DNA of 5,427 bases, taken from IMG/VR virus record IMGVR_UViG_2667527792_000009; one strand, given 5' to 3'. The first letter of the stretch is position 1, and the number at the start of each line of letters is the position of its first letter. Shown here piece by piece: positions 1-5,427 of this stretch. The notes under the pieces were generated by a model. That model saw only the letters and a list, made by a program, of their open reading frames with translations, ran no database searches and was not told the DNA's origin. The position numbers and the translations under genes are program-made. The stretch is from a virus (Duplodnaviria > Heunggongvirae > Uroviricota > Caudoviricetes).

Positions 1-316
1 TGAGTTTTACCGGCACTTCTTCTGCACTGGTTCCGGCATCTGCCCAGACAACCCCGACCAGCGGATCAGAGCCGCTGTTAGTCAGCTGAACTTTTCCGGA
101 CTTCAGATAAACCTTCTTACCCGTTTTCATGTCATCCGTTTTCAGCTTAGGCAGCATAAACACACCTTCGGTCATGCCGTCGCCTGTTTCACCCTGTGGA
201 ATATCGGTCAGCGCCACCGCAAAAACATCGCCCACCTGCACCAGATCTCCGCTGCTGATGGCTGCACTGGCAACAATCGCCACCGTTTTTCCTTCTTCTA
301 CAAAATTCTTTGCCAT
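1..316 (-). CDS. Small phage head-module protein, DUF2190-like (putative capsid decoration/cement protein); partial, 3' end beyond window start
   Basis: ATG at 316-314 with GGAGA Shine-Dalgarno 5-6 nt upstream; minus-strand frame stays open to position 1 (about 105 codons; absent from the ORF track because no stop falls inside the window). Hand translation: MAKNFVEEGKTVAIVASAAISSGDLVQVGDVFAVALTDIPQGETGDGMTEGVFMLPKLKTDDMKTGKKVYLKSGKVQLTNSGSDPLVGVVWADAGTSAEEVPVKL. Gly/Val/Ala-rich small protein in the position directly downstream of the capsid gene. Family assignment is from memory of the motif pattern. Confidence 0.6.
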   Translation of the reverse strand, partial: MAKNFVEEGKTVAIVASAAISSGDLVQVGDVFAVALTDIPQGETGDGMTEGVFMLPKLKTDDMKTGKKVYLKSGKVQLTNSGSDPLVGVVWADAGTSAEEVPVKL

Positions 317-359
317 AACTGTCTCCGCACAGCCCCGTTCAGGGGCTGATTTCAGGTAC

Positions 360-378
360 AAAAAAAGCCCTTACGGGC
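360..378 (-). terminator. Putative Rho-independent terminator downstream of the protease-capsid gene
   Basis: On the minus-strand transcript: GCCC-GUAA-GGGC hairpin (plus 367-378; 4 bp GC stem, 5 with a G-U closing pair, GNRA tetraloop) followed directly by U7 (plus-strand A run 360-366). It starts about 25 nt after the TAA stop at 405-403. Stem is short, so probably a partial terminator. Confidence 0.5.
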
Positions 379-402
379 CATCAGAGTTGTTGTCTGCGAC
401 GT

Positions 403-2361
403 TTACGCCGTACATTTCACCAGACCGCGGTGATCAACTGGCGCGACACCGGCGTCAATACGCACTTTCGTTGTCACGCCATCCACACTGAAGCCCTCCA
501 TCTGATCAATATATGGCGTATCCACACCGTTGAGATAAGCCACTTCAATCGTATCGGAGCCTTTTGACGCAGCCAGGTAGAAGGTGGTCTGGCTGTTATC
601 ATCAAGACGAGGCTCTGCAATAACGGTCGCAAAATCTTTCACCGGGTTAATAATACCGGCGTTAATGTCAGCCCCCTTGACACTTGAGGAGCGAATGACC
701 TGGTTAGCAACAGACTCCATCGCCGTCGGTACCAGTACGAACGCAGGACGAATATTCAGATGACGCTCCCCCTCTTTCTGAACGCGCATCAACTGGCGGG
801 CTTTATCCAGCGATGCCACGTCCATTGCAGCGCTCTCCAGTACGTTTGCATGTTTCGCTTTATCGAACAGACTTACATTATCTGTGGAGATTTTCGGGTT
901 AGACGTCAGAATGGCATAAACCAGATCGGCAATAGTGGATTTCGCCGCACGGCCCAGTTTCATCGGGACATCGGTCAGCATATTCAGATCATCATTGATA
1001 ATGGCCTGACGGGTGATACTGAACAGCTCGCCATAGGTCGCCAGTGCAATAGTGGCCTGTTTATCTCCGGTGGTGACGTATTTATATTCCGCCCCTTCAC
1101 GCACCTGACGCAGAGCACTGAAGCCCCCCATACCCACACGATGGGCAATTTTAAAATCAGACAACTGACCTTTCCGCGTCCACTGTTCATAGGTTTCAGG
1201 GGCATCTTCCCAGCCCTGCAGAATGGCTTTGTTCGCAACATCCAGCAGAATATTACCGAAGTCAGACGTACTGTGTGTGAACGCCGCACCGACCATCTGC
1301 ATCGGGTTATAACCGGAAACCCCAATACCCCGTTCAGTTAGTGACATACGGGCATATTCACGCAGGGTCATCCCGTTGTAGACATTATCACGTTCGGTTT
1401 TTTCAAATCCGGCACGCGCCATCAGCGCCTGGCGGATCCCGTCCCCCACAAAATTACCGTTACCGGCATAAATATGAGCCGGGGTATTTTTATTGGATGG
1501 CGTGGACTCGCGCCCCATCTCGTTCAACAGCTTTTCACGGGCCTGCTCCAGCGAACATTCAGGATCGGCAAGACACTGGGCCTGCAGCATCTGATAACGC
1601 CCGCCAAACATGGCAAACAGATCATTAATACCGTTTACACGCGCTTTTTGCTCTGCCAGTACCTGCGCACGGATACTGTTTTCATCCACCACGGGTGCTG
1701 CTGCCTGCACTGGCGTCCGGGAGGCTGCAGGTTCATCATCCTGTACGCGTGGAGCACTGTTGCGTGGCGGAGTAATCATGTTTCGAATGGATTCCGGCAT
1801 CTTTTTAAATTCCTCTGTACGTTTTGACTGAATACATGCCATTGCCTTAACGGCTGGTGTCACCTGATCAGCAAATCCCTGTGCCAGACATTCGGCACCG
1901 GACATCCAGGTCTCATCCGCCAGCATGGCAGCAATTTCATCGGTGGTTTTCCCGGTTTTCTGTGCATAAGCGGGTAACAGAACCGCCTCAACTTTATCGA
2001 GCAGGTCGGCATAGGTGCGCATGTCCTCCGCATCACCGCCCGTAAAGCCAAATGGTTTATGAATCATCATGAAGGAGTTTTCCGGCATAATGATCGGGTT
2101 TCCCACCATCGCAATGACCGACGCCATTGACGCCGCCACACCGTCGACATAAACGGTAATGGACGCACCATGTGTTTTCAGTGCATTAAAAATGGCGATG
2201 CCTTCAAAGACATCGCCACCCGGTGAATTAATATGGAGATTAATGTGGGTGATATCGCCCAGTGCATTCAGATCACTGATAAACTGCTTCGCTGTAACAC
2301 CCCAGAAACCAATCTCGTCATAAATATAAATATCCGCGTCACTCTGGTGACCTGCCTGCAT
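403..2361 (-). CDS. Prohead protease (ClpP/S14-like) - scaffold-like linker - major capsid protein, encoded as one fused polypeptide (652 aa)
   Basis: Continuous ORF from ATG 2361-2359 to TAA 405-403. The 739-aa track ORF extends further upstream only because the frame stays open across the portal 3' end; 2361 is the first ATG after the portal stop. N-terminal ~180 aa carries ClpP-type motifs (INSPGGDV, GVAASMASV, MMIHKP, ADETWMSGAE) with a candidate Ser-His-Asp triad at codons 2130-2128, 2061-2059 and 1917-1915, spaced as in ClpP. Middle ~140 aa is an Ala/Gln/Glu-rich helical segment. C-terminal ~330 aa has the size and position of an HK97-fold major capsid protein; that part is inferred from context, not verified by motif. 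Confidence 0.8.
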   Translation of the reverse strand: MQAGHQSDADIYIYDEIGFWGVTAKQFISDLNALGDITHINLHINSPGGDVFEGIAIFNALKTHGASITVYVDGVAASMASVIAMVGNPIIMPENSFMMIHKPFGFTGGDAEDMRTYADLLDKVEAVLLPAYAQKTGKTTDEIAAMLADETWMSGAECLAQGFADQVTPAVKAMACIQSKRTEEFKKMPESIRNMITPPRNSAPRVQDDEPAASRTPVQAAAPVVDENSIRAQVLAEQKARVNGINDLFAMFGGRYQMLQAQCLADPECSLEQAREKLLNEMGRESTPSNKNTPAHIYAGNGNFVGDGIRQALMARAGFEKTERDNVYNGMTLREYARMSLTERGIGVSGYNPMQMVGAAFTHSTSDFGNILLDVANKAILQGWEDAPETYEQWTRKGQLSDFKIAHRVGMGGFSALRQVREGAEYKYVTTGDKQATIALATYGELFSITRQAIINDDLNMLTDVPMKLGRAAKSTIADLVYAILTSNPKISTDNVSLFDKAKHANVLESAAMDVASLDKARQLMRVQKEGERHLNIRPAFVLVPTAMESVANQVIRSSSVKGADINAGIINPVKDFATVIAEPRLDDNSQTTFYLAASKGSDTIEVAYLNGVDTPYIDQMEGFSVDGVTTKVRIDAGVAPVDHRGLVKCTA

Positions 2362-2374
2362 CCTGAACCAGGAA

Positions 2375-3718
2375 TTATTCTTCGGACTGGTCGTCGGTGT
2401 GCTGCGGCTCCTGTCGTTTCGTTGCGGCACTGCTGCCTCCTTTATCACTGGCCGGATCGGTATCAAATACCAGATCCAGCTTGCGGTTTTCATCAATTTC
2501 GGCCTTGCGCCGACGTTTGACATCATCCGGATTACGACCACCTGCACGTACCCAGTCTGATTCTGTCGCCGCTCCACCACGAATCTGAATTTTCCAGGCC
2601 TCAGCCTCCTTAACAGGGTCAATCCACGGCATCACCGGTCCGGAATACACCGCGGTATACAGTGAAGATCGGTCCAGATCGCGGGGTAGCCTGATAACAC
2701 CGGATGCCACAGCCTGTTTCAGCCAGGCACGGTACATCGGGCGGGTGACGGCACCAATAAACCAGTCCTGCAGGATCAGGTAGCCATCAGTAGATTCAAC
2801 CAGCTCCTGACGCTGGGCGCTGTAAGTGCCGTTATAGTTGCGCGCTGTACTGGAAAAACTCAGACGACTGCCCGCAGCCACGGCACGCAACTGACCATTA
2901 CGAAAAGTTTCAAGGTTAGGATTGGGGCGATCCGACTTCACCATTCCGATTTCTTCGCCGGGTTTCAGATCGTCGTAAATAATGCCTGGCTGAATGGTAA
3001 GCTCGCGTTCATTCTCCTTGCTGTCATTACCATCCGTTTCATAGCTCTGTCCGTCGCCTTTCCGGATGTACATCCCCAGAGCAGCGGCGATCCTTGCTGC
3101 AGTCAGCTCAGAATCTTCATACTCTTTCAGAGCACTGAGGCGGATCAGCACACCGGACAACAAAGACGTCCCGCGCATCTGGTGCAGACGGCGAACAAAT
3201 TTAAGATGCAGCATTCGCTCTGCATCCACTTCTTTGGTTTCCATCTGCCGCCCGGATACGGGACGGCTTTTATACACCAGATATTTTTCGGGACGCCCCC
3301 AGTCATCAACAAACACGCCCTGATTCAGCCTGTTGCTCTCATCACTGGTCATGGGAATAAAGTCCGGCTCGAGCGCCTCCAGCCAGAAATGAACACCGGC
3401 AGAAGGCGTCAAGCTGTTTATGCGCCCGGAAACCATCTGGGCAAACACCTCACCATCGCGCAGCCAGGTACGCAGCATCAGACGTTCCAGCATCGGACGG
3501 GTAAACTGCCCGGTGACCTCCGGACTGACAGACCATTCACTCCATCGGGTGCGAATCTCCGCTGCCAGATCACGGGCAATGGCCCCATTGCGTAATACCG
3601 GATGTGGCTCGACAATAATCCCGTTTTTCCCCACCACCCGTTCTTCCAGCTTGTCAAATACACCAATGACCAGATCGTGGTTGTTATCAAGGTAACGGGC
3701 CTGCTCACGTAACGACAC
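2375..3718 (-). CDS. Portal protein, lambda gpB family (main body; N-terminal 51 codons separated by an in-frame TAG)
   Basis: 447-codon track ORF running from GTG 3718-3716 to TAA 2377-2375. Large protein with acidic C-terminus (..HTDDQSEE) located between the gpW-like gene and the prohead protease, as in lambda W-B-C order. The same frame continues upstream to ATG 3883 but is interrupted by TAG at 3730-3728. Confidence 0.8.
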   Translation of the reverse strand: MSLREQARYLDNNHDLVIGVFDKLEERVVGKNGIIVEPHPVLRNGAIARDLAAEIRTRWSEWSVSPEVTGQFTRPMLERLMLRTWLRDGEVFAQMVSGRINSLTPSAGVHFWLEALEPDFIPMTSDESNRLNQGVFVDDWGRPEKYLVYKSRPVSGRQMETKEVDAERMLHLKFVRRLHQMRGTSLLSGVLIRLSALKEYEDSELTAARIAAALGMYIRKGDGQSYETDGNDSKENERELTIQPGIIYDDLKPGEEIGMVKSDRPNPNLETFRNGQLRAVAAGSRLSFSSTARNYNGTYSAQRQELVESTDGYLILQDWFIGAVTRPMYRAWLKQAVASGVIRLPRDLDRSSLYTAVYSGPVMPWIDPVKEAEAWKIQIRGGAATESDWVRAGGRNPDDVKRRRKAEIDENRKLDLVFDTDPASDKGGSSAATKRQEPQHTDDQSEE

Positions 3719-3727
3719 GGCCCCGTA

Positions 3728-3883
3728 CTAGCTTAACTGGTCGGCAGTTCGGCTCTCCCGTCGGGCTTTATGTGTCCGCGTCGTTTTTACGGCCTCATAA
3801 GCCTGGATCACCGCACGGGAACGCAGCCTTGCCGCTTTCCATCTTGGTGAAAAAACGCCAATCACATCATCAAGAATTGCCAT
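3728..3883 (-). pseudogene. Portal N-terminal segment (51 codons) cut off from the portal body by an in-frame amber codon
   Basis: ATG 3883-3881 overlaps the gpW-like stop (TGATG) and has a GAGG Shine-Dalgarno about 5 nt upstream. Hand translation [51 protein letters not shown], then TAG 3730-3728, then YGA and the GTG at 3718, all in the portal frame. Confidence 0.55.
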
Positions 3884-4095
3884 CAGAACCTCGCCAGCCG
3901 GTACCCGGGATGCCCCCGTCGTCGTGTAATCAGAGCCGCAAGGCGGCGCTCCCACTCCTGCCGCCCCTGCCGGATCTCAGATAAGTTTTCCATGGTCATC
4001 TGCTGACCATTAAAAGTGACGGATTTTCCGTCCAGCACCGCCATTTCAGCTTCCGTATAACGCTGAATCATGGCTTCAATATCATTCTGATTCAT
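3883..4095 (-). CDS. Head-tail joining / head completion protein, lambda gpW-like (70 aa)
   Basis: Small ORF sitting exactly between terminase large subunit and portal, as W does in lambda. Start assigned to ATG 4095-4093 (GGAGG about 6 nt upstream) rather than the track ATG at 4101-4099, which has no spacer after the same GGAGG. The start overlaps the terminase stop as ATGA; the stop overlaps the portal start. Sequence [32 protein letters not shown]...RRRG is of gpW size with an RRRG-containing C-terminus like lambda W (from memory). Confidence 0.7.
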
Positions 4096-5075
4096 AACCA
4101 TCCTCCGGAAGTCAGCCAGGGGTTAACATCGTCAGTTACTGTTTTCTTCCGTTTTTGTTTTTTAACAGGCGTGGGTACCGGTTCCGGTGAGGGTGACGGT
4201 TCGGTACTGTCCGGGACACACTCCAGCCAGGTTTCCCGGCTCGCCCACTCCGGTGCATCCGGCCAGCGGATCTTTTCGTATCCATGCAGAATGACCAGAG
4301 CCTCGGCATACACCATCAGGTCAAAAGCTTCGTTGGCACCGCGACCCGGCTTACTCCATTTCCCGTCACTGCTCCGCTCTTCATACGTCAGTTCGTCGTA
4401 AAACCAGCTCCCCAGCCAGTCAGGGAAATGCACATAGCCTGGACCTGGCGAGTCACGCCATAACGCGTTATTCACCCGGTCTTTCAGGGCATCCGTCTGA
4501 AGAAGCCAGAGCGGCACATCACCTGCGGCCTGCGCCCGGCGGCCCGTTCGTCCGGTGTTATCAGGGAATGTACGGCTGATCAGTTTTGCGCGCCGGATGC
4601 TGTCGCCCTTAAACAGGTAAATACGTTTACCAAGGCCATCACGACGGCAACGACGCCAGAATTTATAGGCATTATCAGTGACCCCGTCTTCACCGCCGGA
4701 GTCCACCGCCATTGCCATCAGTCGCATTTGTTGAGAAGGATCGGAGGCCAGCGGCCAGCTTTTATGAAAAACATCCGTCAGCAGGACATCCCAGTCTTCC
4801 GGATAGCTGGCCGGATCAATTCGCTGGCTCTCCCCGTCGCAGTCACTGCGCAATGACTGCGTGATGTTGTAACGATCAATAATCCAGCGTTCGCCACGGC
4901 TGCCATAGCCCGTTACCTGAACCACAAAACGGCGATGACGTCCCGCCTGCACATCCACTGTCGCCACAAGGAAATTAACGCCATCCGGAACACTGCGGGA
5001 AGGAACTGGCTCTGCCCGCTGCTCAAGCAGTTCACTTTTTCGTTGCTCCATGCTGGCACGAGGAAGATAAGGCAA
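4092..5075 (-). pseudogene. Terminase large subunit (lambda gpA family), C-terminal nuclease-domain fragment; N-terminal ATPase domain absent
   Basis: Minus-strand frame ending at TGA 4094-4092. The translation from about codon 109 of the 435-aa track ORF (..[33 protein letters not shown].., ..[20 protein letters not shown].., ..[13 protein letters not shown].., ..[10 protein letters not shown].., ..[14 protein letters not shown]..) matches the conserved C-terminal pattern of gpA-type terminases as I remember it. Upstream of about 5075-5080 the same frame is only the antisense of the adhE/LuxR fragments. The only in-frame ATG nearby (5051-5049) has no Shine-Dalgarno, and no Walker-A ATPase region is present. 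Confidence 0.65.
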
Positions 5076-5077
5076 AC

Positions 5078-5285
5078 AGTCTAACGCACTGATGCACCAC
5101 CCAGACATCAACCTGATCCTCGCGACTGGTGGTCCGGGCATGGTTAAAGCCGCATACAGCTCCGGTAAACCAGCTATCGGTGTAGGCGCGGGCAACACTC
5201 CAGTTGTTATCGATGAAACTGCTGATATCAAACGGGCAGTTGCATCTGTACTGATGTCCAAAACCTTCGACAACGGCGTAATCTG
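5078..5285 (+). pseudogene. adhE: Internal fragment of aldehyde-alcohol dehydrogenase gene adhE (about residues 195-245), ending just before the catalytic-cysteine codon
   Basis: Plus-strand translation [68 protein letters not shown] matches, from memory, the E. coli AdhE aldehyde-dehydrogenase domain. Native AdhE continues ..DNGVICASEQS; here the codon after GVI is TGG (W) and the sequence diverges. The three codons 5' of SNAL (G-K-Q) do not match AdhE (expected V-E-L), and TAA lies in frame at 5068-5070. No Shine-Dalgarno before ATG 5092. Confidence 0.7.
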
Positions 5286-5427
5286 GTTAGCGGCGGGCGA
5301 ATCAAATAAGGAGATCGGCAGAGCGCTGAATATCAGTACCGGAACGGTAAAAGCGCATCTGGAATCCCTGTATCGCCGTCTGGAAGTGAAAAATCGCATC
5401 CATGCCAGCGGTCTGGCAAGCCTTTGA
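5286..5427 (+). pseudogene. C-terminal fragment of a LuxR/GerE-type helix-turn-helix regulator, fused in frame to the adhE fragment
   Basis: Translation ..[43 protein letters not shown] then TGA 5425-5427 fits the second half of the LuxR/GerE HTH consensus (G.SNKEIA..L.IS..TVK.H...I..KL.V.NR..A). The first part of the domain (LT.RE.EVL..) and any receiver or ligand domain are missing. I could not assign it to a specific known regulator. Confidence 0.5.

Follow-up and report, generated by a model that had tools for sequence, protein, structure and literature searches.

The question raised by this locus is what became of a phage portal gene whose reading frame contains an in-frame amber codon shortly after its start. 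The window, by which I mean the entire stretch of 5,427 nucleotides that was analysed, carries the portal frame on its minus strand (positions 2375..3883; 502 codons if the TAG is read as Gln). The frame begins with ATG at 3883-3881, runs through 51 sense codons (MAILDD...ADQLS), the last of which are GAC CAG TTA AGC, and then meets TAG at 3730-3728. The N-terminal fragment, 51 codons plus TAG, thus occupies 3728..3883. The stop is followed in the same frame by TAC GGG GCC and then by GTG at 3718-3716, from which the frame is open for 447 codons up to a stop codon at 2377-2375 (the remainder, 2375..3718). All of these coordinates and counts, as given in the initial annotation, were verified, and the plus-strand context of the stop, CTAGCTTAA, is the same as first described.

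That this frame is a true portal gene, and no chance open reading frame, is clear from its product. The joined product of 502 amino acids scores 276 bits against the Pfam family Phage_portal_2 (PF05136), for which the cut-off is 32.9 bits, and the match extends over residues 35-372 of the product and positions 3-354 of the 354 in the profile. Since the domain covers those residues, the TAG at codon 52 (3728..3730, minus strand) falls inside it, and most of the domain lies in the remainder that begins with GTG 3718.

The surroundings are those of a head module, with the minus-strand order large terminase (terL), W, portal, and ClpP-capsid fusion, an order identical in phages cdtI and Ayreon. 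The window holds the 3' part of the large terminase gene (4092..5075, minus strand), encoding about 328 C-terminal codons of a protein that in relatives has 699 amino acids. Directly upstream of the portal is an intact gene for a gpW-like head-tail adaptor of 70 amino acids (3883..4095, minus strand), named from the annotation of relatives; its product found no match in Pfam. The portal ATG shares one base with the TGA of this W-like gene, and the portal start is translationally coupled to it. Downstream of the portal lies an intact gene for a fusion of a ClpP-like prohead protease with the major capsid protein (403..2430, minus strand), recognized by its annotation and by the Pfam families CLP_protease and Phage_capsid_4. 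The start of this last gene (window 2361-2430) is placed differently in different records: RefSeq uses GTG 2430, giving 675 amino acids and a 56-nt overlap with the 3' end of the portal, while the cdtI and Ayreon records begin it 14 nt past the portal stop, giving 652 amino acids. The portal locus therefore has the profile match and the head-module position of a lambda-family portal and lacks, owing to the TAG at codon 52, the uninterrupted frame. Judged by its sequence, it is to be classed as a portal pseudogene and not as a functional member of the Phage_portal_2 family.

What codon 52 used to be can be read from close relatives. The DNA of the region is 97-98% identical to that of deposited phages (n = 16), including cdtI, mEp460, Ayreon, HannyBb, and Tritos, and the joined product shares 98-99.6% of its residues with portals of viable phages. 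In cdtI, Ayreon, and HannyBb the coding sequence runs from the same ATG for 1,509 nt without interruption, that of the prophage in strain 13KWH46 is also intact at 1,509 nt, and in all four codon 52 is CAG (Gln52). The orthologues thus have a sense codon where the window has its stop, and they share the upstream segment, as is expected if the stop is a nonsense mutation. The comparison with 13KWH46 is especially close: its prophage, located at the same chromosomal site, differs from positions 1-5075 of the window at one position, 3730, where it has C and the window T. Since there is no other difference, the event is a single C-to-T transition (G-to-A on the plus strand) that turned Gln52 into amber, and the lack of any further change across 5 kb indicates that the mutation is recent. 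The early suggestion that one nucleotide change, for example CAG to TAG, would account for the stop is borne out by both comparisons.

The same site accounts for the one CTAG in the window (plus strand, 3728-3731), although some 20.7 would be expected from base composition. The mutation therefore created a tetranucleotide that was missing from the ancestral 5.4 kb. The change of CCAGG to CTAGG is the classic amber hotspot of Dcm. Dcm was considered as the source of the mutation and rejected, because the mutated C sits in GCCAGT, which contains no CCWGG site.

It might be supposed that position 3730 is really C and the portal intact, the T being an error of sequencing or assembly, as the initial annotation had allowed. 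The window does give some occasion for this supposition, in that its right end (5076-5427) is pieced together from fragments of unrelated genes and has private substitutions, and its assembly is therefore not flawless. The amber site, however, lies outside any homopolymer, and its T recurs in other genomes. The portal region is present in 1,872 of 5,426 complete genomes of Escherichia coli. When a 51-nt probe centred on the amber codon was compared with the 1,870 complete genomes having this sequence, it matched two of them exactly and differed from the other 1,868. The two, independently sequenced, are 101EVA (human faeces, Singapore) and GPEC1405 (chicken, USA), and in both the NCBI annotation pipeline has labelled the gene "phage portal protein, pseudo, internal stop". 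Positions 1-5075 of the window are identical to 101EVA, one base from GPEC1405, and identical to three further assemblies (L008, L009, and L012); a fourth (L011) has the TAG along with eight other differences. The copies with TAG are identical or at most 8 nt apart over 5 kb. In addition, the N-terminal open reading frame of 51 amino acids, which exists only if the frame stops here, has been called on 203 contigs (NCBI, ENA, and Logan), and the 447-aa remainder on 204, while one identical intact 502-aa portal allele is found on at least 1,000 contigs. The stop, which is present in both complete genomes, in four or more further assemblies, and on the 203 contigs bearing the short frame, is real and heritable; its recurrence in independent assemblies excludes a sequencing error, which can be given practically no probability. 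The TAG is instead a clonally inherited minority allele.

Two other assemblies, L007 and L010, have CAG at codon 52 and yet give the same 447-aa gene call. The first 51 portal codons of both contain 1-nt indels of independent origin (L007 at about 9975, L010 at about 9870-9935; CC to C, and changes in the lengths of T and A runs), equivalent to window positions of about 3742 and about 3784-3848. These indels could be genuine frameshifts, or else mistakes in the sequencing of homopolymers.

The right end of the window can be described separately. Homology to the prophage ends abruptly at 5075, inside the large terminase gene, and 5076-5427 is unrelated to it. Positions 5075-5285 are an internal fragment of adhE, with 209 of 211 nucleotides identical to adhE of 101EVA (two private mismatches) and a best identity of 99.1% among the complete-genome matches listed. 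Positions 5286-5405 are an internal fragment of yhjB, encoding a LuxR-type regulator (HTH), at 98.3%, and the last 22 nt match neither adhE nor yhjB. Together the pieces form one open frame of 111 codons (5092-5427), and this chimeric product is found on no contig on record. The mosaic may be a chimera of assembly or library, or it may be a real scrambled junction. The amber codon, corroborated by independent assemblies, is untouched by it.

The condition of the prophage as a whole bears on every remaining reading of the stop. In 101EVA and GPEC1405 the prophage interrupts ydfJ, adjoining ydfI, ydfZ, rspR, and ydfG, and it contains cargo and lysis genes that the pipeline names dicB, ydfA/B/D, hokD, rem, cspI, gnsB, ynfN, rrrQ, rzpQ, and tfaQ. 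Integration at ydfJ and Qin cargo make it a Qin-type prophage, an assignment drawn from the identical copies in 101EVA/GPEC1405, the window itself stopping short of the prophage ends. Compared with 13KWH46, both genomes are missing 6.2 kb, from inside K (a C40 peptidase) to inside the side-tail-fibre gene (stf), and the deletion removes I, J, and lom. The junction lies outside the window, at 30913-30920 of locus L004, where position 32045 of locus L006 is joined to 38211. It is present in all six of the TAG loci that reach far enough (L004, L005, L008, L009, L011, and L012) and was not found in the CAG loci L006, L007, and L010. A search of the 5,426 complete genomes found it in 101EVA and GPEC1405 and in no others, precisely the pair with the TAG, so that the amber mutation and the tail deletion are perfectly linked. 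Neither 101EVA nor GPEC1405 has a second copy of the portal region (one place per record) by which the defect might be complemented.

Other lesions are found in individual genomes. GPEC1405 (L005, 4591-5288 and 9169-10397) has an IS1 beside a deleted whole left arm and an IS3 inside the gene for the antiterminator Q, 101EVA has one tail gene fragmented, and locus L016 (10326-13390) has its tape-measure gene split into parts of 765 and 256 amino acids and its capsid fusion shortened to 642 amino acids. There is, then, one common deletion from K to stf, on which independent lesions (the IS3 in Q, the deletion by IS1, the split tape-measure gene) have been superimposed in separate genomes. The prophage of the TAG lineage cannot make tails whatever the state of its portal, a statement that for the window is carried over from its identical relatives, and the pattern of lesions is characteristic of an element adrift, with virion production no longer under selection. 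Of the readings offered at the outset, a nonsense-inactivated portal in a decaying prophage is thus the one upheld, by the ancestral CAG on the one hand and by the other lethal lesions in the prophage on the other.

An amber codon need not be lethal to a phage if it is propagated in hosts whose amber-suppressor tRNA restores the full-length portal. Classic amber mutants in lambda gene B behave in this way, and since homologues differ at residue 52 (Q, K, F, N, or R), the portal would probably accept almost whichever amino acid a suppressor inserted. The evidence from 101EVA and from the complete genomes, however, does not support such hosts. In 101EVA the genes for tRNA-Gln2, glnX and glnV, have the wild-type anticodon CTG, those for tRNA-Gln1 have TTG, and tyrT and tyrV have GTA, so there is neither supE nor supF in that genome. 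No complete genome out of the 5,426 contained the exact sequence of supF. The exact sequence of supE was found in 155 records, a result that serves also as a positive control for such a query, and the 60 listed all have the appearance of laboratory strains or of strains derived from them. Nor does the prophage appear to bring a suppressor of its own: scanning of TAG prophage loci turned up one kind of tRNA only, a tRNA-Met (anticodon CAT). It lies downstream of Q in L004 and L005, at 10882-10956 and outside the window, and no tRNA was found in the locus scanned from 13KWH46. Finally, since I, J, and lom are missing, restoring the portal would not restore virions. A suppressor-dependent allele, which had been put forward as one of the original options, is accordingly unsupported and extremely unlikely. 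The search for suppressor alleles recommended along with it covered the supE and supF loci in 101EVA, where none was found, and the exact supF sequence in the complete genomes.

Much the same may be said of the idea that the TAG is a maintained recoding site, at which readthrough is programmed or tolerated. In-frame stop codons under apparent purifying selection are reported to be widespread among bacteria (PMC7918605), and such a precedent lends the idea some plausibility. A recoding site would be expected to have its stop conserved in diverged homologues, but none of these has it, their residue there being Q, K, F, N, or R. Only one near-clonal lineage has the stop; it is missing from all diverged homologues and from 1,868 of the 1,870 complete genomes with this sequence. 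Rfam and repeat scans of the window found nothing relevant, and no Rfam element lies within it. The chance that the TAG is a recoding site seems negligible.

There is more to discuss in the possibility that ribosomes stop at the TAG, restart 9 nt downstream at GTG 3718, and produce a portal of 447 amino acids, truncated at its N-terminus and able to assemble. Restarts after early amber codons in lacI are the classic case of termination-reinitiation. The TAG and GTG 3718 are near enough to one another for the same process, gene callers choose this GTG, and the 447-aa frame is intact on about 200 contigs. The GTG is nonetheless poorly equipped as a start. Its pairing with the anti-Shine-Dalgarno sequence amounts to -4.5 kcal/mol, at the 25th percentile of all positions, and consists of GGGG at a spacing of 2 nt, a weak and badly spaced match; the native portal ATG has -7.1 kcal/mol, plus its coupling to the W stop.

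There is also the segment that would be lost. The upstream ATG is the start in every viable relative. Matches by tblastn at 35-53% identity (Hafnia phage yong2, Pseudomonas phage D14L, and a Vibrio phage) align from query residue 1-3, and the annotated portals of these diverged phages start at the equivalent position, directly after W. Residues 1-55 are kept in homologues down to 33% identity, with P13, R19, and R23 invariant and with the motifs AYEA and R-TH-KA recurring in the N-terminal alignment. The Pfam domain begins at residue 35, hence the truncation cuts inside it, and in lambda gpB an ordered wing domain extends from residue 24 (PMC10721106). A search of sequences with solved structures gave remote matches only, in the C-terminal half (8gtd, 8vhx, and lambda 8k38), leaving the N-terminal 55 residues unmapped. 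No relative was found that starts at the position equivalent to 3718.

The alignment to intact homologues that the initial annotation had suggested thus gives a clear result on both of its points: the 51-residue N-terminal segment is conserved, and the residue at the position of the stop is variable. It also disposes of the notion that 3718 might be the natural start, since relatives down to 33% identity retain the upstream 51 codons. Some product of termination-reinitiation at GTG 3718 is possible, at a low level, and that much of the proposed N-truncated portal stands; no support was found for a function of the product. The missing residues look necessary, and with the tail genes deleted there is no selection for a working portal. 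Given the conserved N-terminal residues and the weak ribosome-binding site, a functional N-truncated portal is very unlikely.

The reading that I prefer is that the locus is a nonsense pseudogene, the outcome of one spontaneous C-to-T change in the portal of a decaying lambda-like prophage of the Qin type and a recent, clonal, and neutral step in its erosion. I would put its probability at roughly 0.9. One feature might be thought to count against it: the portal body 3' of the TAG has no further disabling mutations in most copies. An intact body is expected if the event is recent, and it would fit a retained function too. One might imagine, for instance, that the amber is leaky and still in use, with re-initiation at GTG 3718 or near-cognate readthrough supplying a little portal-like protein that is kept under selection (e.g., for capsid-like particles or some other domesticated role). 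The intact state of the 447-codon remainder and of the adjacent head genes on about 200 contigs would then have an explanation; I consider such use of the allele highly unlikely.

To return to the nonsense pseudogene, the course of events would be as follows. In an E. coli prophage of the lambda type, integrated at ydfJ (the Qin site), one spontaneous C-to-T transition would have converted Gln52 (CAG) to amber (TAG). Where the host has no suppressor, translation from ATG 3883 would end after 51 residues, and full-length portal would not be made. By analogy with the biology of lambda gpB, there should then be no dodecameric portal ring and hence no packaging-competent prohead. The mutation, recent and clonally inherited, lies in a prophage that is also unable to make tails, through the 6.2-kb loss of I, J, and lom, and that goes on gathering IS insertions and gene splits. 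Since the loss of the portal would presumably leave the host as open as before to induction and lysis, the mutation is most simply taken as neutral. The amber would be one neutral step of Qin-type erosion and neither a regulated nor a conditional feature; an inherited stop together with the loss of tail-tip genes amounts to ordinary prophage decay.

The practical meaning is modest. The split portal calls (51 and 447 amino acids) in about 200 public assemblies represent one inherited pseudogene, neither two genes nor an error. The single-base TAG and the K-stf junction together make a clean marker for one lineage of E. coli, and the prophage that carries them stands partway along the path of Qin-type erosion, from intact relatives like that in 13KWH46 to the head-less Qin of K-12. 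Beyond such bookkeeping the stop has little significance, and it raises no new question about portals, suppression, or recoding. It is already known in kind and already annotated in RefSeq.

How it is known in kind may be seen by setting the locus beside four familiar systems. The first consists of the portals of the viable phages cdtI, mEp460, Ayreon, HannyBb, and Tritos, members of the lambda gpB family, which are like the window in gene order, in the overlap of the portal ATG with W, and in their length of 502 codons, and whose DNA around the portal start is 97-99% identical to it. Portals of viable lambdoid phages have CAG at codon 52 and an uninterrupted coding sequence, whereas the window has TAG. 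The second is Qin of K-12, which occupies the same site (ydfJ) and has the same cargo and lysis genes as the prophage of the TAG lineage. On the K-12 map, the head and tail genes of that Qin have been lost entirely; the TAG-lineage prophage has such genes and so represents an earlier stage of erosion, marked by the nonsense mutation, the 6.2-kb deletion, and IS elements. The third comprises the laboratory amber (sus) mutants of lambda gene B, which likewise have an amber codon in the portal gene and which, in a non-suppressing host, form no functional proheads. Those mutants were selected and kept on suppressor hosts and are otherwise intact, while the TAG allele is natural and resides in sup0 genomes (as judged from supE and supF in 101EVA), in a prophage with other lethal lesions. 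The fourth is the pool of defective lambdoid prophages, in which degradation is pervasive. Point mutations, deletions, and IS insertions in the morphogenesis genes of resident lambdoid prophages of E. coli are textbook knowledge, and prophages such as the Sp elements of O157 Sakai show the same mix, of which the TAG prophage is another instance in a different lineage.
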